A DNA stretch of 28,094 bases, taken from NCBI GenBank assembly GCA_041159805.1, contig JBEAXM010000073.1:1-28094 (forward strand), written 5' to 3'. Below are positions 9,659 to 25,278 of the stretch, one piece after another. The notes under the pieces were generated by a model that was not told the origin of the DNA, made no database searches, and saw only the letters and a list, made by a program, of their open reading frames with translations. The first letter of the stretch is position 1, and each line of letters begins with the position of its first letter. Position numbers and translations under genes: made by a program. The stretch comes from Bacteroidota bacterium (GTDB lineage Bacteria > Bacteroidota > Bacteroidia > AKYH767-A > OLB10).

Positions 9659-10720
9659 CTATTTCACTTCCTTCATCAACACGATGTACACCGGAAGGTG
9701 ATCGGAGTACCCTCGCATGTAGATGTCGAAGTCGTAAGTTCGGAACGGATATCCCTTGTAGCGCCCTGATTTTTGGAAAAGGTAAGGTCGGTTGAAAATG
9801 ACGGCTTTTTTGTAAAAGAACCCGTCCTGTTGTTCCGATAGAAACGGCTGCGAAATGATGATCTGATCGAATAGGTTCCATGCATCATTATAGGCCAAGG
9901 TCCCGATTCCCTGGCTGTAATAATCGTTCCATGGGTTGTATAGCGCGTTTGGAGTGAGTGTCTTTTTATCATATCCTGCATTGAGGACTTCCGTCACACT
10001 CTTGTTGATAGGGTCATCATTCAAGTCGCCCATCACAATCACCTTGGCGTTTGGCATTACCTTGAAAATACTGTCTATTTTATTGCGTGCAACCGACGCG
10101 GCCAATGCCCTGGATGGTGCCGAGGCCTCTTCGCCACCCCTGCGGCTGGGCCAGTGATTCACGAAAATGTGCATGGGTTCGCCGTTGTGTAATCCATAAA
10201 CCCAGAGCACATCACGTGTGGCGTAAGGGGTACCATCTGAGTTCCTCAGTGGTACATTCAGCGGAGCGCTCTCCAGTTCCCTGAAGTATTTAGGATTGTA
10301 GAAAAGTGCAACGTCCACGCCTCGGCGGTCGGGTGAGTCGTAGTGTACGATTTTGTAATTCCTTGATTTCAATTCGGGTTGGGCAGCCAGGTCCTCTAGC
10401 ACTTTCCGGTTTTCAATCTCAGCAACACCTAGGATCGATAAACCATCAGGAGATTCGTCAAGACCAAGTTGGGAAACCACAGTAGATAGGTTGTGCAATT
10501 TGTCTTTGTAAACTTCTTCCGTATAACGTTTGGTGCCATTGGGAAGAAACTCTTCATCGCTTTTTTCGGGATCGTCGGTTGTGTCATACAGGTTCTCCAA
10601 ATTGTAAAAACCAATGCATGAAATCTTGTAGGTGCGTTTGGTTTCTTGCGCGTGTACCTGAAGGGATACAAATAGTAGCAATCCGATAATGTAGGCCTGG
10701 AAGCGGAAAGTCTTGAGCAT
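9659..10720 (-). CDS. Secreted endonuclease/exonuclease/phosphatase (DNase I-fold, EEP) family protein
   Basis: Motifs GFYNLENLYD, GVAEIEN, DSPDRRGVDVAL, NHWPSR, MGDLND, WNLFDQI, GYSDHLPV. Sec signal peptide MLKTFRFQAYIIGLLLFVSLQVHA-Q, with no lipobox or CTD. Start placed at 10720 because a -7 box overlaps the track's 10744 ATG. Confidence 0.9.
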   Translation of the reverse strand: MLKTFRFQAYIIGLLLFVSLQVHAQETKRTYKISCIGFYNLENLYDTTDDPEKSDEEFLPNGTKRYTEEVYKDKLHNLSTVVSQLGLDESPDGLSILGVAEIENRKVLEDLAAQPELKSRNYKIVHYDSPDRRGVDVALFYNPKYFRELESAPLNVPLRNSDGTPYATRDVLWVYGLHNGEPMHIFVNHWPSRRGGEEASAPSRALAASVARNKIDSIFKVMPNAKVIVMGDLNDDPINKSVTEVLNAGYDKKTLTPNALYNPWNDYYSQGIGTLAYNDAWNLFDQIIISQPFLSEQQDGFFYKKAVIFNRPYLFQKSGRYKGYPFRTYDFDIYMRGYSDHLPVYIVLMKEVK

Positions 10721-10741
10721 GTGCTGTTGTAAGTAGGTCCA

Positions 10742-10749
10742 CAAAGGTA
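10742..10749 (-). promoter_or_regulatory. -7 promoter box for the EEP nuclease gene
   Basis: Minus-strand TACCTTTG, a perfect TAnnTTTG match. Confidence 0.6.
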
Positions 10750-10766
10750 GTAATCGGCTTTCGCCT

Positions 10767-10799
10767 TTAGGTCGCCATTAAATCTTTGTTAAGTCGCCA
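10767..10799. promoter_or_regulatory. Direct-repeat candidate operator in the divergent promoter region
   Basis: TTAGGTCGCCA (10767-10777) and TTAAGTCGCCA (10789-10799): 10/11 identical, period 22 bp. An extra TCGCC lies at 10761. Confidence 0.4.
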
Positions 10800-10840
10800 A
10801 CTAATTGGTTTTCAGCTATGCAGCTAATATCTGAATTACC

Positions 10841-10848
10841 TACCTTTG
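10841..10848 (+). promoter_or_regulatory. -7 promoter box for the TonB-dependent transporter operon
   Basis: TACCTTTG, 40 bp upstream of ATG 10889. Confidence 0.6.
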
Positions 10849-10888
10849 AGACCCCATTAATCCAGTAATCATCAACCCCCAATTTCAT

Positions 10889-13675
10889 ATGCTCACAACT
10901 CTTAGGCTTTTGGCCACGGTACTTTGTGTCTTTGTGTTTACGTTTTCGAATGCTCAAAGCACCAACACGATCAAGGGGACAATCACCGACGATTTGAACA
11001 ACTTTGTAGAGAATGCACAGGTTTCTGTGAAGGGAACCGAATTCAAGGCAACCAGCGGGCTCAATGGATCTTTTGAGATCGTTGCCGTACCCAACGGTAC
11101 CTATGAGCTGGAGATTACCGCACCTGATCATTTGCCCTACTCCAAGAGCTTTGTGTTGTCTGGCAATGGCATTGATTTCAGTTTCATTGTAATGGAGACA
11201 TCCTCGGGATTATCGGATGACAACCGCGACAACATACCTGTAGCTTCCATTTCCGACTCTGAAGTCCGTGAATCAAGCACTCAAGCCGTAAGTGGTGTGT
11301 TGAGTGCATCGCGTGATGCATTCGTTTCGGCAACCACCAACACCTTTGGTGCGGCACGTTTTCGCATCCGTGGATATGAGAACGAGAATTTTGTGACGTA
11401 CATGAACGGTGTACCGATGACTGACTTGTTCAATGGAAACTCGATGTTTTATTTGTGGGGCGGGTTGAATGATGTGACTAGAAATCGTGAAACCATCAAC
11501 AACCTGTGGCCATCCACATTTTCATTCGGTGGAGTGGGAGGTAGTAGCCAAATTGACTCCCGTGCCAGCAAACAGCGCAAGCAATTAGCCGTATCGTACG
11601 CGTTATCAAATCGTGCATACGAAAACCGCGTCATGGCCACCTATGGAACCGGTCTTATGAAAGGCGGCTGGGCGTTTGCCGGAAGTCTTTCAAGGAGATG
11701 GTCGGATGAGGGTTATATCGCCGGTACGTACTATGATGGATGGGGTTATTTCTTGGCTGCTGAAAAGCTGATCGGTTTCAACCACTCCATAAGTCTAACC
11801 TCTTTCGGCGCACCTGTTGAGCGTGGTAAAAGCTCCCCTGCCATGAAGGAGCTGTACGAATTGGCGGGGACGAATTATTACAACCCAACCTGGGGATGGC
11901 AGGAGGGCAAGAAGCGGAATGCTTCGGTCAACATCAGTCATCAGCCGGTGATCATCCTGGCGCACGATTGGAAAATCAATAACCAATCCAATCTCCGCAC
12001 CGGTGTCGGCTATACTTTCGGTGAGAATATCAACACGGCATTGGATTGGTATAACGCCCCCGATCCTCGTCCGGATTACTACCGAAACCTGCCAAGCTAT
12101 TACTCCGAATTTCCGGATGTTGCCCAGCAGCTTACCAGTTTGTTCGAAGCCAATGACTCTCTGCTTCAAATCCAATGGGACGAACTTTACAATGCCAACT
12201 TAAACAGTATCGAGACCATCGAGGATGCAGACGGGATTGTAGGGAATAGCGTCACGGGTCGTCGTTCACATTACATCATCGAGGAGCGTGTTGCCGATGG
12301 AAAAAAACTTCATATCAACACCACCTATAACACTTCCTTCAGCGACAACTTTCAGTTCTCTGCGGGAGGAGGTATCATGGACCAACGAACCAACTATTTC
12401 AAGCGTGTGAAGGATCTGCTCGGTGGTGATTTTTATGTGGATATCAACCAGTATGCTGAACAGGATTTCGCTGACAGTTTGAACTTCATTCAGAATGATG
12501 TCAACCGTCCGAACCGTATTTTGCGTGAAGGCGACCGTTTCGGATACGACTATGATGCAAACATTTTCAAAGGGAATTTCTGGTCGCAAGGGCAGTGGAA
12601 ATTCGAGAAGATCGACTTCTTCGCCTCGGTGGAGTTGTCACAGACCTCTTATTACCGCACAGGAAATGTCACCAATGGATTGTTCCAGGATAATTCCTTC
12701 GGCGATTCCGAAAAGCAGCAATTCACCAACTATGCTGCCAAAGGTGGCATGACCTACAAGATTGATGGTAGAAACTATCTGTTTGCAAATGCCGCCAGCA
12801 TGACCCGTGCACCTTACTTCGAAAACGCGTTTGTTTCGGCAAGAACCCGCAATCAAACAGCACCTGGCCTCACCAATGAAAAGGTGATGTCCTTTGAAGG
12901 AGGATACCTTTTGCGTGCACCTCGTACCAAAGGACGTGCTGTGTTCTACTATACGCAGTTCAGCGACCAGACCAATACGGTCAGTTTCTACCACAGCGAT
13001 TACCGAAATTTCGTGAATTACACGCTCACCAATGTCGACAAACGCCACACAGGTGTTGAGTTGGCCATTGATCACAACTTCGGAAGCGGATTTTCCGCCA
13101 ATGCCGTTGCTGCAATCGGTCAATATTATTATACCGACAGACCACTTGCCACCATCACGGTCGACAACACTTCCACTACGCTTGTAGATGGCGAAACCGT
13201 ATATGCCAAGAATTTTTATGTAGGTGGAACCCCTCAAAGCGCTTACACCATTGGGCTCAACTACCGTGCGAAGAAGTTCTGGTTTGTGAACCTCAACTTC
13301 AATTATTTCGACAACACTTATCTGGATTTCAATCCCGCACGCAGAACAGCCGCCGCGATCGACCTGGTGCCTGAAGGTTCCGAGCAATGGAATAGCATTT
13401 TGAATCAGCAGAAAACAGACGGGCAATTCACCGTTGATTTCTTCGGTGGAAAGTCTTGGAAGCTGAACGATAAATTCAAGGCCATCAAAAGAAACACCTT
13501 CTTGGTGTTGAATGCAGGTGTCAGTAACATCACCAACAATACGTCATTGGTCACCGGCGGTTTCGAACAGCTCAGGTTCGATTTCACTGAGAAGAACCCC
13601 GATGCGTTCGCACCAAAGTACTTCTATTCCTTCGGAACCACTTATTTCATCAATCTGATTCTACGCATAAATTAA
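10889..13675 (+). CDS. TonB-dependent outer-membrane transporter (non-SusC type) with N-terminal carboxypeptidase-regulatory-like domain
   Basis: Signal peptide; IKGTITD...ENAQVSVKG...GSFEI N-domain; plug motif FRIRGY...YMNGVPM; long amphipathic beta-strand barrel; ends in an aromatic-rich strand (YSFGTTYFINLILRIN); 928 aa. Confidence 0.88.
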   Translation: MLTTLRLLATVLCVFVFTFSNAQSTNTIKGTITDDLNNFVENAQVSVKGTEFKATSGLNGSFEIVAVPNGTYELEITAPDHLPYSKSFVLSGNGIDFSFIVMETSSGLSDDNRDNIPVASISDSEVRESSTQAVSGVLSASRDAFVSATTNTFGAARFRIRGYENENFVTYMNGVPMTDLFNGNSMFYLWGGLNDVTRNRETINNLWPSTFSFGGVGGSSQIDSRASKQRKQLAVSYALSNRAYENRVMATYGTGLMKGGWAFAGSLSRRWSDEGYIAGTYYDGWGYFLAAEKLIGFNHSISLTSFGAPVERGKSSPAMKELYELAGTNYYNPTWGWQEGKKRNASVNISHQPVIILAHDWKINNQSNLRTGVGYTFGENINTALDWYNAPDPRPDYYRNLPSYYSEFPDVAQQLTSLFEANDSLLQIQWDELYNANLNSIETIEDADGIVGNSVTGRRSHYIIEERVADGKKLHINTTYNTSFSDNFQFSAGGGIMDQRTNYFKRVKDLLGGDFYVDINQYAEQDFADSLNFIQNDVNRPNRILREGDRFGYDYDANIFKGNFWSQGQWKFEKIDFFASVELSQTSYYRTGNVTNGLFQDNSFGDSEKQQFTNYAAKGGMTYKIDGRNYLFANAASMTRAPYFENAFVSARTRNQTAPGLTNEKVMSFEGGYLLRAPRTKGRAVFYYTQFSDQTNTVSFYHSDYRNFVNYTLTNVDKRHTGVELAIDHNFGSGFSANAVAAIGQYYYTDRPLATITVDNTSTTLVDGETVYAKNFYVGGTPQSAYTIGLNYRAKKFWFVNLNFNYFDNTYLDFNPARRTAAAIDLVPEGSEQWNSILNQQKTDGQFTVDFFGGKSWKLNDKFKAIKRNTFLVLNAGVSNITNNTSLVTGGFEQLRFDFTEKNPDAFAPKYFYSFGTTYFINLILRIN

Positions 13676-13687
13676 TCCTACCATATC

Positions 13688-15163
13688 ATGAACTCCATCA
13701 TTAAAAAATCTTTCGGACTGCTCGCACTTGCAGCACTCTTCTTGGTCTCTTCTTGTCGAAAGGATGATTTCGACAATCCTCCTGCTGGCGGTACTGACCC
13801 GAACCTTACGGTGAACAAAACCATTGCGGACCTGAAAACAGGTTATGTGTTCGGTCAATTCAAAACCATCACCGATGATTGGGTGATTGCCGGTGTTGTC
13901 ACCGCTGATGACCGCTCTGGTAATTTCTACAAGACGGTAATCATCCAGGATGCAACCGCAGCCATTGCTGTGCGCATCGATGTCAGTGATTATTACACCA
14001 AGTACCCCATTGGCCGTAGGGTTTATATCAAGCTGAAAGGACTTGTGTTGGGCGATTACAACGATTTGATCCAGCTTGGTGGTTTCATCGATAACTCGAA
14101 TCCCTCATTCCCTTCAGTTGAACCAATTCCTTTCGCATTGGTTGATGACCATTTATTCCCAGGCCAATACAATTTGGTGATGATGCCGGAGGTTGTGACC
14201 ATTACACAAGCAACCAACGATCCATTGTATTACCAAAACCGTTTTGTTCGTTTCGAAGGAGTTGAGTTTGATGCTGCTGATACCTCATTGACTTATGCCG
14301 ACATGGCCAACCAGGCCTCTGCTAACCGTACGTTGAACGATTGTACAGGTGGCACAATAGAGGTTCGTTCCAGTAACTATTCCACCTTTGGTGGCGATAA
14401 CCTGCCAAACGGTAAAGGCAGCTTGACTGGAATTTTCAGTGTTTATGGGAACACTCCGCAGATGTATATCCGCGACACGTACGATGTTGTGATGGACTCG
14501 GTTCGTTGCAACGGTGGTGGTGGAGGCGGCCCTGCCACACCTGCTACCATCTCTTATGTAAGAGGTCTCTATACCGGATCCACAATCAGTTCCCTTCCTG
14601 CTCTTAAAATCAAAGGTGTTGTCATTTCCGACAAGGCCGCAGGCAATTTTGTGACTAAAAACATCACTATTCAGGATTCAACCGGTGGTATTGTTGTTCG
14701 CTACACCGCTGATCATGCTTTCAACCTTGGTGATCAAGTTGAGGTGATTATCTCTGGGACAGAACTCTCCGTATTTCAAGGAGTGCTGCAAGTGAACCTG
14801 GTGCCTTTGTCAAATGCCACGTTGCTTGCAACCGGTGTAACGGTTAATCCCCGTGTTGCAACGGTTGCTGACATCATTGCCAACTTCAACCTTTGGGAGT
14901 CAACATTGGTTAAGGTTTTGAACACGAACGTTACAAGCACCACTGGAACATACGGTGCTTCTGCAGCTCCATATCCAGATGTTGTGGTCAATGACGGAAC
15001 CGGCACCATTAAACTTTATACGAGGGGTAGTGCCACCTTCAGTAGTTCAACTGTGCCATCAGGCGCAGTGAATGTAACGGCCATCGTGGTACCTTATCTT
15101 CAAAATTCAACTGCACCACTTGTCAAAGAACTCATGATTCGTAACTTGACTGACATACAATAA
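13688..15163 (+). CDS. Lipoprotein with two tandem DUF5689-like (OB-fold-type) modules
   Basis: Lipobox LVSS-C23; unit 1 GVVTADDRSGNFYKTVIIQDATAAI; Gly6 linker at aa 276-281; unit 2 GVVISDKAAGNFVTKNITIQDSTGGI. Confidence 0.8.
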   Translation: MNSIIKKSFGLLALAALFLVSSCRKDDFDNPPAGGTDPNLTVNKTIADLKTGYVFGQFKTITDDWVIAGVVTADDRSGNFYKTVIIQDATAAIAVRIDVSDYYTKYPIGRRVYIKLKGLVLGDYNDLIQLGGFIDNSNPSFPSVEPIPFALVDDHLFPGQYNLVMMPEVVTITQATNDPLYYQNRFVRFEGVEFDAADTSLTYADMANQASANRTLNDCTGGTIEVRSSNYSTFGGDNLPNGKGSLTGIFSVYGNTPQMYIRDTYDVVMDSVRCNGGGGGGPATPATISYVRGLYTGSTISSLPALKIKGVVISDKAAGNFVTKNITIQDSTGGIVVRYTADHAFNLGDQVEVIISGTELSVFQGVLQVNLVPLSNATLLATGVTVNPRVATVADIIANFNLWESTLVKVLNTNVTSTTGTYGASAAPYPDVVVNDGTGTIKLYTRGSATFSSSTVPSGAVNVTAIVVPYLQNSTAPLVKELMIRNLTDIQ

Positions 15164-15182
15164 TTCCAATTGATAACTTTAG

Positions 15183-15217
15183 AGGGGTCTGTTCTTACAA
15201 CAGGCCCCTTCTTTGTT
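15183..15217 (+). terminator. Stem-loop (possible intrinsic terminator or mRNA-stabilising hairpin)
   Basis: AGGGGTCTGTT-cttac-AACAGGCCCCT stem (one G-U pair) followed by an interrupted T tract (TCTTTGTT). Confidence 0.55.
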
Positions 15218-15231
15218 AAATCCCAACTGCC

Positions 15232-17463
15232 ATGAACACGCCAAACTTTCGATTGACCTTTCAATTGCTGATCCTATTGTTATTACCAAGCTACGGATAC
15301 ACGCAAACCATCAGCATCAGTGCTGCCCGCGCTTTGCCAGTGGGAAGTATTGTTACAGTGAATGGAACCGTAACCTCAGGATCAGAATTTGGCACCATCC
15401 GCTATATTCAGGATGGTACAGGTGGAATAGGTTTGTTCAGCACGTCCTTGACATCTCTGCAAAGGGGCGATAACGTTACCGTAACAGGAACGACCACACA
15501 GTTTCAGAACCTGTTGGAAATCGTGCAGGTTACCGCTTGGAATGTCAACTCATCGGGAAATCCATTGCCAGCCCCTCTATTGATTACACCTAGCCAGTTA
15601 GGTGAAAACAACGAGTCAATGTTGGTTCGAATCCCTGATGTGAGCTTTCTCACATCAGGCGCGTTTCAAGGCAATACCACATATACATTTAACAGTAACG
15701 GACAAACAGGAGTGGTTTACATCCGTTCCAGTAATCCATTGGTGGGCCGACCGATTCCAACAGGTACCATAGAACTGACAGGTGTCAACTCCCAATATGG
15801 AACGCAGTACCAGGTACTCCCCCGCGACTCCAATGATTTAGTGTCTACAGGAGCATTGTCGATCACCAAACAACCTTATCCACAAAATATAACCACAACT
15901 GGTTTTGATATTTCCTGGGAAACCAATGCTGCTGCGAATCACTTTCTACGTTATGGGCTCAGTACTGCATTGGAGTTGGGAACGTTGGTCGGTCCATCAT
16001 CAACCAACCAACCAACGATCAGCATATCTGGAGGAACGGCATCGCAGCTTTTTTATGTTCAATCGGTATCGGTAAATGGTACGGACTCTTGCTTTTCTCC
16101 AATCCGTCCTTTCATCACACGCTCTTTGTCGTCTGGAAGCATTAAGCCATATTTCACCCGACCTATTGACAATGCCAATGGCGCCATCGGAAACAACTAT
16201 GCTGTTTACCTCAACGACTTGGCTGATGACACCATCAAGGCATACATTGACCGCACTGTGTCAACGCTCGATATTGCCATTTACAGCTTTGATGCGCCTG
16301 GTGGCAGTTTGATCGCCCAAGCCATCAATGATGCTTATACCAGAGGTGTTCAGGTCAGGTTGATTTCCGATGGAGGAAACACCAATAATGCCCTTCAGTT
16401 GTTGAATCCTGCGATACCTGTTTTACAATCACCAACCACGCCTCCGTTCTACTATGGAATCATGCACAACAAATTCGTGGTTATGGATGCAAATCATCCC
16501 AATCCGTTGAAGCCGGTGGTATTGTCGGGCTCCACCAATTGGACATTGGGGCAGTTGGAGGATGACCGCAACAATTTGGTCTTCATCCAGGACCAGTCAC
16601 TTGCCAAGGTATATACCATGGAGTTTGAGGAGATGTGGGGTGGTTCTAGTGCCCAGCCCAATCCTACGCTGAGTAAATTTGGGCCTGATAAATCCGATAA
16701 CACACCGCATGTGTTGAATGTCGGAGGAAAGATTGTTGAAAGCTATTTCAGTCCAAGTGACAATGTGAACGGTCAGATTCTGCGCACGTTGCAATCAGCG
16801 GATCACAATATTTGTTTTGCCACCATGGTATTGACCCGCACCGATCTTGCTTACGCAATTGAAGATCGGGCATTGAACCATGGAGTGGGGGTGTTTGGAA
16901 TCATGAATGATTCCTCAGGAGGCAGTGGCACCGCCTTTCAAATCATCCAAAATGCTATCGGCTCGAACATGCTGTTGTTCGATTTTGCTGCCAATCCAGG
17001 TATCATGCACCACAAATACGCTTTGGTGGACCACACATACCTGAACAGCGACCCCATCGTATTGACGGGCTCCCACAACTGGAGTTCAGCGGCCACTCAG
17101 CGGAATGATGAAAACACCCTTGTCATACACGATCACGACATCGTAAACCAGTATTTTCAGGAGTTCTTACACATGTACAATGGCAATGGTGGATCCTTGG
17201 GAGTAATTGAATCGTCAACCATAAGTGGGTTCAACCTGTTTCCTAATCCAACAAACAACACATTCTCCTTGAGCATTGCGTCAAATGAAGTCATGGCTGT
17301 TCCTGTCGTCATCCGAGACATGACCGGAAAGGTAGTGCACATGCAAACATTACAGCTTCATGTTGGCTTGAATGAATTGGGCTTGGATGTCTCGCTTGTA
17401 AAGGCCGGAATGTATCTCGTTCAAGTTGGTAATGGAAGGGGTCAGCGTTTGGTCGTATACTGA
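15232..17463 (+). CDS. T9SS-secreted phospholipase D superfamily protein (two HKD motifs, Nuc-like) with N-terminal OB-type module and FN3-like domain
   Basis: Signal peptide; HNKFVVMD (aa 412-419) followed by GSTNWT; HHKYALVD (aa 593-600) followed by GSHNWSSAATQRNDEN; CTD FNLFPNPT...IRDMTGKVV...GMYLVQV...QRLVVY. Confidence 0.88.
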   Translation: MNTPNFRLTFQLLILLLLPSYGYTQTISISAARALPVGSIVTVNGTVTSGSEFGTIRYIQDGTGGIGLFSTSLTSLQRGDNVTVTGTTTQFQNLLEIVQVTAWNVNSSGNPLPAPLLITPSQLGENNESMLVRIPDVSFLTSGAFQGNTTYTFNSNGQTGVVYIRSSNPLVGRPIPTGTIELTGVNSQYGTQYQVLPRDSNDLVSTGALSITKQPYPQNITTTGFDISWETNAAANHFLRYGLSTALELGTLVGPSSTNQPTISISGGTASQLFYVQSVSVNGTDSCFSPIRPFITRSLSSGSIKPYFTRPIDNANGAIGNNYAVYLNDLADDTIKAYIDRTVSTLDIAIYSFDAPGGSLIAQAINDAYTRGVQVRLISDGGNTNNALQLLNPAIPVLQSPTTPPFYYGIMHNKFVVMDANHPNPLKPVVLSGSTNWTLGQLEDDRNNLVFIQDQSLAKVYTMEFEEMWGGSSAQPNPTLSKFGPDKSDNTPHVLNVGGKIVESYFSPSDNVNGQILRTLQSADHNICFATMVLTRTDLAYAIEDRALNHGVGVFGIMNDSSGGSGTAFQIIQNAIGSNMLLFDFAANPGIMHHKYALVDHTYLNSDPIVLTGSHNWSSAATQRNDENTLVIHDHDIVNQYFQEFLHMYNGNGGSLGVIESSTISGFNLFPNPTNNTFSLSIASNEVMAVPVVIRDMTGKVVHMQTLQLHVGLNELGLDVSLVKAGMYLVQVGNGRGQRLVVY

Positions 17464-20166: not shown

Positions 20167-21249
20167 ATGCTTTCAATATCCGACCGCTCCTCTATCGTAT
20201 TATGGTTACTTATTGGATGTTTTTTGATTTTCACCATGGTAGTGGTGGGGGGTATCACTCGACTTACAGGATCGGGCCTCTCCATCACCAAGTGGGAGGT
20301 TGTTACTGGGACTTTTCCGCCCATGAATGAAGCAGATTGGCAACATGAGTTTGACTTGTATAAGCAAACTCCTCAATACCAACACATGAATGCTCATTTC
20401 GAGCTCTCCGATTTCAAAGGGATTTATTGGTGGGAGTACATCCACCGGCTACTTGGTCGTTTGATTGGATTGGTTTTTGTGATTCCATTTGCATGGTTTG
20501 TAGTGCGTGGCAAAATGGACCGAACATTGATTTGGAAATGCCTGTTGCTGTTTTTACTTGGCGGATTGCAAGGTTTTTTCGGCTGGTATATGGTTAAAAG
20601 CGGATTGATTGACGAACCCAGCGTCAGTCATTTCCGATTGGCGCTTCATCTGTGCACTGCTTTCATCACTTTCTGCTTCACCTTGTGGTTTGCCATGGAT
20701 CTGATCAACACGGAAAAGGTGAGGCCCGCTGGTTGGATTGCAAAGCTGAACCGTTACACCAAAGTTGTGCTAACCATAACATTTGTTCAAATCGTTTTCG
20801 GAGCGTTTGTTGCGGGTTTGAAAGCGGGCCTGATTTACAATACATGGCCATTGATGGGCGATAAATTCATGGCCGATTCGGTCTCTTATGCCGTAGAAAC
20901 AATGGGGTGGCATGGGTTGATTGATAACATGTCGGGGGTGCAATTCATACACCGAAACCTGGCTTATGTTGTCTTTTTCGGCGTGTTGTTTTTGCTTTGG
21001 TATTCTTGGAAAAACAACCGTGGTCAAGCAGAAAAACTGCTACCTGGACAAATGACAGCCGTTTGGCTTTGTTCGGTGTTTGTTGTGCTGCAATTTGTTC
21101 TAGGTGTTTTCACCTTGCTGCACGCGGTTCCACTATGGTTGGGAGTCATACACCAGGCAGGAGCCCTATTGCTCCTGGGGTCGTTGGTTTATTTGTGGCA
21201 TCAGCTCGGACATGTTTCCGTATCCGATGTCAAAGCAGCCAATCAATAA
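20167..21249 (+). CDS. ctaA: Heme A synthase (COX15/CtaA family)
   Basis: Motifs GGITRLTGSGLSIT, WWEYIHRLLGR, GWYMVKSGL, VSHFRLALHL, QFIHR, HQAGA; about 8 hydrophobic TM segments. Confidence 0.93.
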   Translation: MLSISDRSSIVLWLLIGCFLIFTMVVVGGITRLTGSGLSITKWEVVTGTFPPMNEADWQHEFDLYKQTPQYQHMNAHFELSDFKGIYWWEYIHRLLGRLIGLVFVIPFAWFVVRGKMDRTLIWKCLLLFLLGGLQGFFGWYMVKSGLIDEPSVSHFRLALHLCTAFITFCFTLWFAMDLINTEKVRPAGWIAKLNRYTKVVLTITFVQIVFGAFVAGLKAGLIYNTWPLMGDKFMADSVSYAVETMGWHGLIDNMSGVQFIHRNLAYVVFFGVLFLLWYSWKNNRGQAEKLLPGQMTAVWLCSVFVVLQFVLGVFTLLHAVPLWLGVIHQAGALLLLGSLVYLWHQLGHVSVSDVKAANQ

Positions 21250-23633
21250 ACAACCAGCTTAACTGGCTTACTCGAGCCGTTCTTTTGTAGTAGGCGTATC
21301 GAGTAAACGCCTGCACCCAACGAGGATGTTTGCACATGGATGGTGCTTTCTTGTCCTCCATATGGCATTTCCTTTACGATCTTACCTGTCAAGTCTGTAA
21401 CAGTCACACTTCCTGGCTGGTTGTTGGGTTCAAAGGAAACCAGCACATACTCCGACGCAGGATTAGGCATTACCAATGGTGATTGAATGGAGATGTTTTC
21501 ATTGATGGAATTCGTTCCAGGGAGTATTTTGGAAACAGTGAAATCATCAAAATAGAAGCCGTCATACTCCAAGAAGCCATCACTGACCAATTGGAATCGG
21601 ATGAGTACGTTGTATCCGATATAGTCGTCAAGTGATATTTCCTCTTGAACCCATGATGTTTGAAAGCCCTCATACAATGGTTCTCCCGGCATTTGGAAAT
21701 TACTTCCCTCCACCGTGTATTTCCCACATAGCGGACTCCATGTTGCTCCATTGTCTATTGATGCTTGAACCTGAACGTAGTCATAATTTGCCTCCAATGC
21801 CCAACGTGCATAGAAGGTCAACCTGGCTTTGATGGCATTGGTCAAATTCACCTGGTTCGACATACGAATCGCTTTGGTTTGGTTTGATCCGTAATTCCCA
21901 ATCGGAGAATCGGTGATGGATGCATTTGGAGAATAAAACACAGAGTTAGAAACACCCCATTGGTTGCCGTTGAATCCGGTTGTACTGTTTCCATCCGATG
22001 CAAAAAGTGTGGTGGGGGATCCGAAAAACCTGGTGACGGTATCAGTTCGGACATAAGAGCCGTTGTCGATGGACAGTACAAAACGTATCGTGTCACCGTT
22101 CACCATTGGGCTCGTAAGTGCAAACGAAATGGAATCTAAAACGGATTGCATGGGAGCTAAACCATTTATGGTTACGGCAGCACCGGTTTGCACGATATTG
22201 TTTGTTAATCCACTTAGCGTGATGGTGTAGGAACCGGTGTTATCCAAACCCAGTTGCTTCACTCGGAAAGGGATGTGTCCCCCTCCTGAAGAAATGATTT
22301 CGGAGCCCAATGATTCCAAAGAAGCATACTTGCCAGTTAGCAGAGCTGCAGTCAGGTTTTGATACATTGTGTTTTGGCAAAGGGGTATGATCTCGTTTGC
22401 CGGAGGCCAGAAGCCGAAGGAGGCATCACCACATTCGGGTGTCATGGCGAATATTTTCGGTTTGGTGGTTTGTTCGCCGTACATCCAATCATCCGAGCTG
22501 CCGTTCACAATGTAACCTACAGTCTGATCCGCTGTACCAAACGAGTAGCTGTTGTATGTGGTCAGCAGGCGGCCGTAATCGGCATACAAAGCCGAGTCGG
22601 GCGTGTAAATGGAATAATCATATCCCCATGGATAGATCAGTAGGTTGCCAAATGTGTGATAATTCAGAGCGATTTTGAAATCCTTGCTGTTTACAAAATC
22701 GCGGATGAGTTGTGTCTCCGGTTCTGAGAACGGGTTTGTACCTCGATAGGTTTCTGTAAATCCATCGGGCGATGACCCATTGTCATCGTAACCCCAGTTA
22801 TAACCATAGTTTCGATTCAAGTCGACACCGAATGAGCCATCTTGGTTGTCACGACGGTTTTTTCGCCAAAGTCCTCCCCCTTGAGGGTCGGTGGCTTCGT
22901 TGAACAAATAACCATCTGGATTCAAACATGGAATAAAGTAAAGCTCCGTGTTGGCAATGATTGCAGCCACTTCGCTGTTGTTAGCGTGGTTCTCTAAAAG
23001 GTACCACATGTAAAATATCAGCTGCGACATACCACCTGGCTCCCTTGCGTGATGCACGGCGGTGTATAACATCTCCGGTTCATTTTCGTCCACAGTCGGA
23101 TTGTCGGATATTTTGACCATATAAACAGGCCTACCTTCAATCGTGGTTCCTCCTGGAAGCGGTGCTTTGACAGTAATGAGGTTTGGATATAACGATGCCA
23201 TTTGATCCAGGTTGTCAAGCATTTCCTGGTAGGTGAAATAACCTGCGTACGAACCCAGTGAAAAGTTGGCTGGCACATTATAAACAGGGGCACCTGCATT
23301 TGAGCAACCATTGGGGGCCATTCCAGTCCTTTGGTGTTCATGCGGATGTAGGTTTTGCTCTTGATAATGTTTTTTGACATCAGCAATCAATATCTCGTAA
23401 TTGAAGCCGGCCTCTTTTACTTTCCGTATCTCAGCGGAATCCAAATCGGTCACTAACCATACATTTTTTCGGATATCGCCATGGTCAGTTTCAATGCCCA
23501 TCTGGGCAAGCCGTTGTAATCCGGTAGTACTGCTATAAATGCGAACACGACTGTGTGATGGTCCTTGACCCATGCAATAGTTGAACGCTGAAAATTGGAG
23601 GATGATCAAATAAAACAGTATTTTAATTTTCAT
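21243..23633 (-). CDS. T9SS-secreted M14 zinc carboxypeptidase (carboxypeptidase T-like) with pro-region, Ig-like and jelly-roll domains
   Basis: Zinc motif HHAREP (HxxE), NPDG, WRKNRR, GVDLNRN, NYHTFG, catalytic TPECG; CTD PNPA...TDLTGKIV...GVYSIRL...VKLVVY. Confidence 0.92.
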   Translation of the reverse strand: MKIKILFYLIILQFSAFNYCMGQGPSHSRVRIYSSTTGLQRLAQMGIETDHGDIRKNVWLVTDLDSAEIRKVKEAGFNYEILIADVKKHYQEQNLHPHEHQRTGMAPNGCSNAGAPVYNVPANFSLGSYAGYFTYQEMLDNLDQMASLYPNLITVKAPLPGGTTIEGRPVYMVKISDNPTVDENEPEMLYTAVHHAREPGGMSQLIFYMWYLLENHANNSEVAAIIANTELYFIPCLNPDGYLFNEATDPQGGGLWRKNRRDNQDGSFGVDLNRNYGYNWGYDDNGSSPDGFTETYRGTNPFSEPETQLIRDFVNSKDFKIALNYHTFGNLLIYPWGYDYSIYTPDSALYADYGRLLTTYNSYSFGTADQTVGYIVNGSSDDWMYGEQTTKPKIFAMTPECGDASFGFWPPANEIIPLCQNTMYQNLTAALLTGKYASLESLGSEIISSGGGHIPFRVKQLGLDNTGSYTITLSGLTNNIVQTGAAVTINGLAPMQSVLDSISFALTSPMVNGDTIRFVLSIDNGSYVRTDTVTRFFGSPTTLFASDGNSTTGFNGNQWGVSNSVFYSPNASITDSPIGNYGSNQTKAIRMSNQVNLTNAIKARLTFYARWALEANYDYVQVQASIDNGATWSPLCGKYTVEGSNFQMPGEPLYEGFQTSWVQEEISLDDYIGYNVLIRFQLVSDGFLEYDGFYFDDFTVSKILPGTNSINENISIQSPLVMPNPASEYVLVSFEPNNQPGSVTVTDLTGKIVKEMPYGGQESTIHVQTSSLGAGVYSIRLLQKNGSSKPVKLVVY

Positions 23634-24251: not shown

Positions 24252-24259
24252 TACCTTTG
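24252..24259 (+). promoter_or_regulatory. -7 promoter box for the GT9/PKD-protein unit
   Basis: TACCTTTG. Its last G is the track's GTG start, which favours TTG 24277 as the real start. Confidence 0.6.
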
Positions 24260-24276
24260 TGAAGCACAAAAGGTCA

Positions 24277-25278
24277 TTGAAAAAAATACTGGTCATAAGG
24301 TTCAGCTCCATTGGAGATATCGTGTTAACCACACCTGTTGTACGATGTATGGCCAGGCAGTTGGTTGGTTGCGAATTGCACTTCTTGACCAAGCCCGCGT
24401 TTGAGGGAATAATCGCTTCAAACCCTTACGTTAGCAAGGTGCATGTTTTGGATGATGACCTGCAGCAAACCATTCGTAAACTTAAAAACGAAAAATTCGA
24501 TTTTATTGTCGATCTGCATCATAACCTTCGTAGTAAACGTGTTCTGATGGGTTTGGGTGTTTCAGGTTCGGCATTCCCAAAGTTGAACATTGAAAAATGG
24601 CTTTTGGTGAATTTGAAATGGAACCGAATGCCTGATATGCACATCGTAGACCGTTATTTCAAAACCGTGGAATCGTTTGGTGTAAGATATGATGGTGAAG
24701 GTCTTGATTACTTCATTCCGGAAAAAGACCGGATTGATTTGAATGCATTGCCTGAATCGCATCGTAATGGTTATGTTGCAATGGTAATAGGGGCCCAACA
24801 TGCCACGAAGCGAATGCCATCGCTACGTTTGAAGGAATTGGCTGCCAAACTGAATTTGCCTGTTCTGCTTTTGGGCGGAAATGACGATTACTTGAGTGGA
24901 GAGGTGATTGTCCAGGGCAACGAGTCCAATGTCATCAATTTATGTGGAAAATACAATTTGAATCAATCGGCATCCTTGGTTCACGACGCCCGGGTGGTGA
25001 TCACCCACGACACCGGATTGATGCATATTGCCTCGGCCTTTCGTAAAAAAATCATTTCACTTTGGGGTAACACGGTTCCAGACTTTGGAATGACTCCGTT
25101 TGTGCCTGATGGAGTAGGGGCCAGTTATATATTCGAAGTCGAAGGTTTAAAATGCAGGCCTTGCTCCAAGATTGGCTATGATAAATGTCCCAAGGGGCAT
25201 TTCAAATGCATGATGGACATGAATTTGGATAATGTTGCACGAAAAGCACATGATCTGTTTTATGAAAATTCAATTTAG
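24277..25278 (+). CDS. Glycosyltransferase family 9 (LPS heptosyltransferase-like)
   Basis: (M)KKILVIRFSSIGDIVLTTP, IVDLH, THDTGLMHIASA, LWGNT. TTG 24277 gives the canonical family N-terminus. Confidence 0.92.
   Translation: MKKILVIRFSSIGDIVLTTPVVRCMARQLVGCELHFLTKPAFEGIIASNPYVSKVHVLDDDLQQTIRKLKNEKFDFIVDLHHNLRSKRVLMGLGVSGSAFPKLNIEKWLLVNLKWNRMPDMHIVDRYFKTVESFGVRYDGEGLDYFIPEKDRIDLNALPESHRNGYVAMVIGAQHATKRMPSLRLKELAAKLNLPVLLLGGNDDYLSGEVIVQGNESNVINLCGKYNLNQSASLVHDARVVITHDTGLMHIASAFRKKIISLWGNTVPDFGMTPFVPDGVGASYIFEVEGLKCRPCSKIGYDKCPKGHFKCMMDMNLDNVARKAHDLFYENSI

Follow-up and report, generated by a model that had tools for sequence, protein, structure and literature searches.

A Probable DNA Capture and Import Locus of the Ddb Type beside a Gene for a T9SS-Secreted Double-HKD Enzyme in a Member of the Bacteroidota

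Introduction

What might a transporter, a surface lipoprotein, and two putative nucleases, encoded side by side in a small bacterial genome, do together? The question is raised by a 28,094-nucleotide stretch of DNA (contig JBEAXM010000073.1 of GenBank assembly GCA_041159805.1; hereafter the window) that comes from a metagenome-assembled genome (MAG) of the Bacteroidota, 2.07 Mb in size and 80% complete. Here, the gene for an enzyme of the endonuclease/exonuclease/phosphatase (EEP) type is divergent from the genes for a TonB-dependent transporter (TBDT), a DUF5689 lipoprotein, and an enzyme of the phospholipase D (PLD) type that carries two HKD motifs and a type IX secretion system (T9SS) sorting domain. 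Lakes contain a large pool of phosphorus and nitrogen in the form of dissolved DNA, and the uptake machinery of freshwater Bacteroidota has been little studied.

Two relevant systems have been characterized. In Bacteroides thetaiotaomicron, the whole ddbABCDEF locus is needed to deplete exogenous DNA (PMC12478041; Sharan et al., PNAS 2025). DdbA, DdbB, and DdbF are nucleases in vitro, DdbB having a signal peptidase I (SPI) signal peptide; DdbC is a TBDT; and DdbD is a DUF5689 protein, the model of which resembles the dsDNA-binding HIN domain of p202 (PDB: 4JBM) (PMC12478041). DdbC and DdbD are homologous to RA0C_RS04915 and RA0C_RS04920 of Riemerella anatipestifer, which adjoin a ddbB homolog in a locus described as strikingly similar to ddbBCD (PMC12478041). 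Transposon mutants of RA0C_RS04915 (a pfam13620, i.e., CarboxypepD_reg, outer-membrane protein) and of RA0C_RS04920 (DUF5689) lose natural transformation (PMC8459023, 2021), and in a tonBA mutant transformation is inhibited while iron uptake is not reduced (PMC8383284). As detailed below, our analysis indicates that the locus in the window is probably a Ddb-type outer-membrane machine that captures, cuts, and imports extracellular DNA, and possibly RNA.

Results

The Three-Gene Core

Judged by sequence, the first three genes of the locus belong to the same families as the ddbBCD genes and the Riemerella core, stand in the same order, and encode products with the same predicted locations (Table 1). 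For a survey of synteny, we took 300 Bacteroidota genomes and examined 20 kb around 40 homologs of the lipoprotein. The transporter gene is found directly upstream on the same strand in 39 of these 40 loci, and the EEP gene lies beside the transporter gene in 27 of them, mostly in divergent orientation; the three-gene core is thus an old, conserved module. No HKD domain was found within ~9 kb in any of the 40 lipoprotein-anchored loci.

Table 1. Coordinates of the features of the locus, in positions of the window
Feature	Position	Strand	Basis and remarks
DdbB-like EEP (DNase-I-fold) nuclease gene, SPI signal peptide	9659..10720	(-)	PF19580; catalytic residues; divergent to transporter
Divergent intergenic region, one Bacteroidota-type -7 box (TACCTTTG) per direction	10721..10888	.	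Boxes at 10742-10749(-) and 10841-10848(+)
DdbC-like TonB-dependent outer-membrane transporter gene, not SusC-type	10889..13675	(+)	CarboxypepD_reg, plug, barrel; 928 aa, signal peptide
DdbD-like surface lipoprotein gene, two DUF5689 modules, each predicted tandem-OB (HIN-like)	13688..15163	(+)	Lipobox Cys23; AlphaFold2 fold matches
Terminator-like hairpin between lipoprotein and PLD genes	15182..15210	(+)	12-bp stem, 6 G-C pairs, T-rich tail
Gene for T9SS-secreted putative nuclease: signal peptide, DUF5689, FN3-like sandwich, two HKD, type A sorting domain	15232..17463	(+)	Pfam/NCBIfam; invariant HKD

The lipoprotein gene begins 12 nt past the transporter stop codon, and its product matches DUF5689 with an E value of 4e-95 over two modules. 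Lipobox Cys23 is followed by R-K-D-D-F, in agreement with the Bacteroidota lipoprotein export signal quoted in PMC12478041, and the K-D-D motif is conserved in 45 homologs. A sequence search of the PDB with the lipoprotein returned nothing useful, and only the fold search was informative: when the AlphaFold2 (AF2) model (pLDDT 88.4) was compared with the PDB by Foldseek, the top 50 matches were all nucleic-acid binders with tandem oligonucleotide-binding (OB) folds, starting with the p204 HINab-dsDNA complex (E = 1e-9) and continuing with CST, RPA, RADX, and Teb1 and with the HIN domains of IFI16, AIM2-type receptors, and p202. The p202 structure 4JBM, the very match published for DdbD, was found with probability 1.00. 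TM-scores are modest (∼0.4–0.5 per target domain) and the list is uniform; on the strength of the model, each DUF5689 module is predicted to have a nucleic-acid-binding fold. An NCBIfam match to the Riemerella M949_1556 lipoprotein family was left unused, as its 151 bits fall far below the cut-off of 475.

The EEP protein matches PF19580 (Exo_endo_phos_3) from end to end (E = 1e-116) and has a classical SPI-type signal peptide without a lipobox Cys. Its catalytic residues, i.e., N40, E42, E101, N188/H189, D232/N234, D285, and D340/H341 (numbered from the ATG), are invariant in 28 orthologs. PF19580 is also present in the B. thetaiotaomicron control genome, and we liken the EEP protein to DdbB by family and position; a PDB sequence search with the EEP protein gave nothing useful. 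As listed, the open reading frame (ORF) spans 9659–10744(-) and opens with a TTG at 10744, with an in-frame Met eight codons in, at ATG 10720. Because the TTG-extended ORF would contain its own -7 box, the ATG is likely to be the true start.

At its N terminus, the transporter matches CarboxypepD_reg (E = 7e-11), and no match to the SusC-family model of NCBIfam was obtained. With a family profile built from 37 orthologs, the barrel part matches the TonB-dependent transporter OprC and the N-terminal domain matches that of a SusC homolog, while Plug is detected in 22 of the 37 orthologs (best E = 1e-13); at the level of sequence profiles, this settles the TBDT fold.

How close is this transporter to those already described? 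Cloacibacterium, a proxy from Riemerella's family, the Weeksellaceae (L041; L numbers denote the loci compared), has the transporter-lipoprotein pair, with 32% identity for the transporter and ∼30% for the lipoprotein. The best Bacteroides and Phocaeicola transporters found with the window transporter as query are 25%–28% identical. Membership of the gut subtypes Bt1, Bt2, Pv1, and Pv2 is defined by >50% identity to the DdbC of the subtype (PMC12478041), and the window transporter appears to fall outside all four, as compared with database Bacteroides transporters rather than with the reference DdbC proteins. The ∼26%-identical Bacteroides transporters were rejected as representatives of ddb: the one that was checked (Bacteroides gallinarum, L018 10001–14594) is followed by a DUF5017 protein. 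They are a related but separate kind, and searches of two Bacteroides genomes (the ones from which L014 and L018 come) found no DUF5689.

The PLD-Family Enzyme

The PLD protein contains a DUF5689 module (E = 2e-12), the third of the locus, together with two PLDc_2 domains and a Por_Secre_tail. The sorting domain scores 37.9 bits against TIGR04183 (cut-off 23), and gldM, a core gene of the T9SS, occurs in the source genome (417 bits against a cut-off of 180), which, as far as sequence can tell, makes the protein T9SS type A cargo. Both HxKxxxxD motifs (H412/K414/D419 and H593/K595/D600) and the Asn residues of the GSxN motifs (N436 and N616) are invariant in 48 homologs. The closest sequence neighbors of its HKD domains are NucT (NCBIfam E = 2e-20, short of the equivalog cut-off), Zucchini/MitoPLD (E = 3e-12), Nuc (6e-5), and NucT structures. 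The folds nearest to the AF2 model (pLDDT 88.3) are those of a bacterial phospholipase D, the PLD3/PLD4 5' exonucleases (crystallized with ssDNA), and vaccinia F13, and phosphatidylserine synthase scores similarly; the predicted fold alone cannot tell nucleases from lipid enzymes. Given the fused, putatively DNA-binding module and the sequence neighbors, a nuclease is the likeliest reading. The family comprises >3,800 database proteins, of which at least 120 have the combination of DUF5689, PLDc_2, and sorting domain.

These results uphold what a preliminary description of the window, made from its letters, had said of the four genes: all four ORFs are intact and lie where it had placed them, the EEP enzyme has its signal peptide and intact DNase-I-like motifs (PF19580, SPI, invariant residues), the TonB transporter is divergent from it (CarboxypepD_reg, family-level Plug, OprC-like barrel), the lipoprotein starts exactly 12 bp after the transporter (at 13688) and is of the OB type by its predicted fold (AF2 model, all tandem-OB PDB matches), and the last gene encodes a T9SS-secreted double-HKD protein (TIGR04183, two PLDc_2, invariant HKD). 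The profile annotation that it had proposed, once run, returned PF19580, CarboxypepD_reg, DUF5689, PLDc_2, and Por_Secre_tail, and the survey of gene neighborhoods, also of its proposing, found the core together in other Bacteroidota (39/40 and 27/40) and the PLD gene with it in eight of 12 loci from the family and order of the window and in none of the 40 others.

Linkage of the PLD Gene to the Core

The PLD gene is present in all five other genomes of the window's genus and in 12 of 18 in the family. Of 12 loci examined within this family and its order, eight have it directly after the transporter-lipoprotein pair and one more has it directly after the transporter; in the more distant of these loci, the proteins are only 46%–58% identical. 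In a MAG with a 49%-identical PLD protein, the transporter, lipoprotein, and PLD genes are consecutive and their neighbors are different.

Between the lipoprotein and PLD genes lies a terminator-like hairpin, to which the preliminary description made no reference, with a folding z-score of -4.2. A strong hairpin is found at the same place in all seven relatives that were folded (L051, L005, L148, L143, L147, L141, and L145); the hairpins are unrelated in sequence and in most cases carry a U-rich tail. Such a pattern suggests a conserved terminator, or an mRNA-stabilizing 3' end, that sets the expression of the transporter and lipoprotein genes apart from that of the PLD gene. From the sequence we conclude that the transporter and lipoprotein genes probably form one transcription unit. 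The PLD gene is a conserved neighbor, added to the core in a lineage-specific way; since it stands behind the conserved hairpin, its expression would be separate or would rely on read-through at a lower level. A single operon that includes the PLD gene is not supported, given the conserved hairpin and the finding that elsewhere the gene is mostly away from any detectable related transporter.

In other lineages, 40 loci anchored on PLD homologs were examined, and a related transporter was detectable near the PLD gene in three, with none within ~9 kb in the remaining 37. It should be noted that three of 40 is a lower bound, since tblastn with the window's own transporter misses divergent transporters; Pfam scans of some of the PLD neighbors found one trio of lamin-tail-domain (LTD), transporter, and PLD genes and one further divergent TBDT. 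In two of the three linked loci (L062, 4898–11021; L064, 4933–11039), the PLD fusion comes directly after the transporter and there is no separate DUF5689 lipoprotein; in loci of this type, the DUF5689-PLD fusion may replace the lipoprotein at the transporter. The ORF preceding the transporter in L062 encodes a T9SS LTD protein, and L064 has a matching ORF at the same place.

Elsewhere, the company of the PLD gene varies, T9SS peptidases being found among the other neighbors that were scanned. In L078 (5877–12145), its neighbors encode a PorV/FadL-like small barrel, an NHL-repeat protein, and the beta and epsilon subunits of ATP synthase. ORFs of similar size surround DUF5689-PLD in L071, L075, L083, L085, and L097 (∼325 and ∼358 aa upstream on the same strand, ∼470 and ∼135 aa downstream), which would give this enzyme another, distinct conserved setting, L078 being the only one of these loci that was scanned for domains. 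On a 4.4-Mb metagenomic contig (L053, 10001–21504), a PLD homolog is accompanied by three lamin-tail-domain proteins (two of them T9SS-tailed), a phytase-like protein, and a phosphate-selective-porin-like protein, a context that hints at phosphorus scavenging. In the window itself, an M14 carboxypeptidase that is secreted by the T9SS and has an InhA-like MAM domain is encoded ∼4 kb from the PLD gene, at 21243–23633(-), and an M14 carboxypeptidase gene adjoins the PLD gene directly in two distant genomes (L073, 6310–8787; L095, 6386–8890); this proximity may be residual synteny of T9SS cargo genes.

Promoter Boxes

The intergenic region between the EEP and transporter genes contains the same octamer, TACCTTTG, in each direction, just as the preliminary description had it; the boxes lie 19 nt before the EEP ATG and 40 nt before the transporter ATG. 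The window holds three copies of the octamer against 0.78 expected, and at least three were seen in four of 100 shuffles. In relatives, there is usually a TAnnTTTG box in each direction and the octamer is not the same, and we therefore read the boxes as ordinary divergent promoters rather than as a shared operator. Over the whole window, TAnnTTTG is not enriched (14 copies against 18 expected). A sigma-70 promoter scan was set aside as unsuited to Bacteroidota. The third copy of the octamer (24252–24259) ends on the first base of the GTG start listed for a GT9 glycosyltransferase ORF (24259–25278); if the octamer is a -7 box there, the true start of this gene would lie further downstream.

Genomic and Environmental Context

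The flanks of the locus carry housekeeping genes, i.e., ruvX, dapD, and genes for a GT4 glycosyltransferase, an alpha/beta hydrolase, a GNAT acetyltransferase, an aspartokinase-like kinase, and the heme A synthase CtaA. Pfam and NCBIfam scans of the window found no glycoside hydrolase, no SusD, and no regulator, and the claim that the first two are lacking thus stands. Profile searches of the source genome located DUF5689 in the lipoprotein and PLD genes only and PF19580 in a single copy. The genome also encodes two 5'-nucleotidase-domain proteins, ComEC, DprA, and a 309-aa ComEA-like protein with three HHH_3 motifs.

Metagenomes of freshwater and lakes, published in 16 studies, contain near-identical copies of this stretch, and the presence of CtaA in the window fits an aerobic host; together, these data fit a free-living freshwater aerobe. 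In a riverine metatranscriptome, four short contigs match portions of the transporter and lipoprotein genes letter for letter (12509–12659 and 14472–14997), and no contig from the EEP or PLD gene was found in the same data set. As DNA carry-over is possible, these contigs are a mere hint that the transporter and lipoprotein genes are expressed.

Discussion

How would such a machine work? We infer each of the following steps, except where others have tested homologs. The PLD enzyme would be exported by the T9SS and either released or fixed to the surface, where its DUF5689 module would hold nucleic acid and the double-HKD site would cut it. The lipoprotein, sitting on the transporter as DdbD has been modeled on DdbC, would bind the fragments through four OB folds arranged like those of HIN-200 domains. 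The TonB-dependent barrel would then import the DNA, which the periplasmic EEP nuclease would process further, and the products would enter nucleotide and phosphate salvage or pass via ComEC and DprA to recombination. The division of labor that the preliminary description had proposed (an outside nuclease, a DNA-binding lipoprotein, import by the TBDT, and a periplasmic nuclease) is that of the published ddbABCDEF model, which the core matches by family, order, and fold.

Several points weigh against a Ddb-type import machine that includes all four genes. The transporter's own match to the Plug model lies just below the Pfam cut-off, and homology to DdbB, DdbC, DdbD, and the Riemerella proteins rests on Pfam families, gene order, fold, the descriptions in the papers, and the Weeksellaceae proxy. 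The conserved hairpin parts the PLD gene from the core, and with a related transporter detectable at only three of the 40 PLD-anchored loci of other lineages, the link of the PLD gene to import may be loose. As regards a nutritional role, DNA is a poor sole source of carbon, nitrogen, or phosphorus for B. thetaiotaomicron (PMC12478041), and, given the ComEC, DprA, and ComEA-like proteins of the genome, the imported DNA may serve transformation.

For the main role, we lean toward food: nutrient salvage seems slightly favored, transformation has a distinctly smaller chance, and what little remains goes to both or neither. The lean toward degradation comes from the secreted nuclease kept next to the core here and from the pattern in the gut, where loci with secreted nucleases deplete DNA and a subtype without one barely does so (PMC12478041). 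A selfish supply of phosphorus, nitrogen, and nucleosides, as had been proposed for the locus, is not supported, the Riemerella homologs serving transformation and DNA being a poor nutrient for B. thetaiotaomicron. That the core is primarily the DNA-uptake step of natural transformation, as in R. anatipestifer, passing DNA to the ComEA-like protein, ComEC, and DprA with any nutrient gain incidental, is a minority possibility with a real chance of being right. The Riemerella locus, ∼5.7 kb long and like ddbBCD, has room for just such a three-gene core, its transporter and lipoprotein are needed for transformation, the present genome encodes ComEC, DprA, and the 309-aa protein with three HHH_3 motifs, and the core module is far more widespread than its linkage to the PLD gene. 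However, ComEC and DprA occur in non-competent bacteria too, including our control genomes, Flavobacterium johnsoniae was untransformable under the conditions tested (PMC7965970), and a secreted nuclease conserved beside the core fits degradation better, given how little DNA is depleted by the gut loci that lack one. The presence of ComEC, DprA, and ComEA-like families was rejected as a test of competence, as the same families were found in non-competent control genomes.

The PLD enzyme might instead be an independent T9SS exoenzyme that does not work with the transporter, either a general extracellular nuclease or else a phosphodiesterase or phospholipase that serves to scavenge phosphorus or to remodel biofilms. 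The terminator-like hairpin before its gene, the 37 of 40 loci in other lineages that lack a detectable related transporter within ~9 kb, the varied neighbors that were scanned (PorV-like and NHL-repeat proteins; T9SS peptidases; LTD, phytase-like, and phosphate-porin proteins), and the true phospholipases and phosphatidylserine synthase among the fold matches all speak for this, yet we judge it unlikely: throughout the family and order, its gene stays next to the core at 46%–58% identity, the fusion directly follows a related transporter in other genomes, the PLD protein and the lipoprotein have the predicted DNA-binding module, DUF5689, in common, and the nearest relatives in sequence are nucleases. 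Nor need the substrate be DNA, since OB folds bind RNA and other polyanions too, and Zucchini and PLD3/4 accept single-stranded RNA besides DNA; a system for some other phosphodiester polymer or polyanion (RNA, teichoic-acid-like polymers, or polyphosphate) is nevertheless improbable, with both characterized homologous systems acting on DNA and the best fold matches of the lipoprotein being HIN-domain dsDNA complexes.

If the locus is indeed a Ddb-type DNA importer, what does it add? The core mechanism is already published; what is new is the T9SS-secreted HKD enzyme, a putative DNA-binding nuclease, beside the core. PMC12478041, which surveyed gut Bacteroidales, makes no mention of T9SS or PLD enzymes, and our literature searches turned up no account of an HKD nuclease that is secreted by the T9SS and linked to a transporter of this kind. 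The preliminary description was right to look for novelty mainly in the T9SS PLD component and in a host that lives freely. No new category is opened, in that the build differs and the machine is known. The locus does suggest that abundant free-living plankton, too, use the DNA import module that has been proven in Riemerella and in gut Bacteroides, it names specific genes that could be tracked in the metatranscriptomes of phosphorus-limited lakes, and it brings into view an enzyme family with >3,800 homologs. The putative nuclease of the window carries the same predicted DNA-binding module as the transporter's lipoprotein. We may speculate, with considerable doubt, that in a widespread group of freshwater Bacteroidota with small genomes the T9SS HKD nuclease is fixed to the surface, docks by its DUF5689 module on the DdbC-type transporter or beside it, and in certain lineages even stands in for the lipoprotein, to form a nuclease-coupled complex for DNA import. 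If this is true, these bacteria would be major users of the DNA dissolved in lakes and of the phosphorus in it.

Comparison with Known Systems

Like the ddbABCDEF locus, the locus in the window combines a putative periplasmic nuclease with an SPI signal peptide, a non-SusC TBDT, and a DUF5689 lipoprotein with a predicted p202/HIN-like fold in the same core arrangement; it also has an additional, putative exported nuclease and follows a logic like that of a polysaccharide utilization locus (PUL) without SusD or glycoside hydrolases. In contrast to ddbABCDEF, the exported nuclease is here a T9SS double-HKD protein with its own DUF5689 module, whereas DdbA and DdbF are signal peptidase II (SPII) lipoproteins; there is no DdbE, the EEP gene is divergent, the PLD gene stands behind a hairpin, and the host appears to be a free-living freshwater aerobe. 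Shared with the Riemerella locus are the CarboxypepD_reg outer-membrane barrel, the DUF5689 lipoprotein encoded after it, and, adjoining them, the gene for a nuclease that appears to be ddbB-like. The RA0C lipoprotein, however, has an extra DUF5017-type region, the role shown there is transformation, and the ∼5.7 kb of that locus (as delimited in PMC12478041) leave no room for a further nuclease gene of the size of the PLD gene.

The likeness to a SusC/SusD PUL lies in an enzyme outside the cell, a binding lipoprotein on the surface, the gene of which comes directly after that of the TBDT, and a periplasmic enzyme; unlike such a PUL, the locus has no SusD, no match to the SusC model, and no glycoside hydrolase, and its binder is predicted to have OB folds instead of TPR. 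It would thus work like a PUL but, by its gene content, is not one. Finally, the PLD protein has the HxKxxxxD and GSxN motifs in common with the single-HKD enzymes Nuc, NucT, and Zucchini and with the double-HKD enzymes PLD3 and PLD4, and it differs from all of them in that two HKD motifs in one chain are fused to predicted tandem-OB, FN3-like, and T9SS sorting domains.

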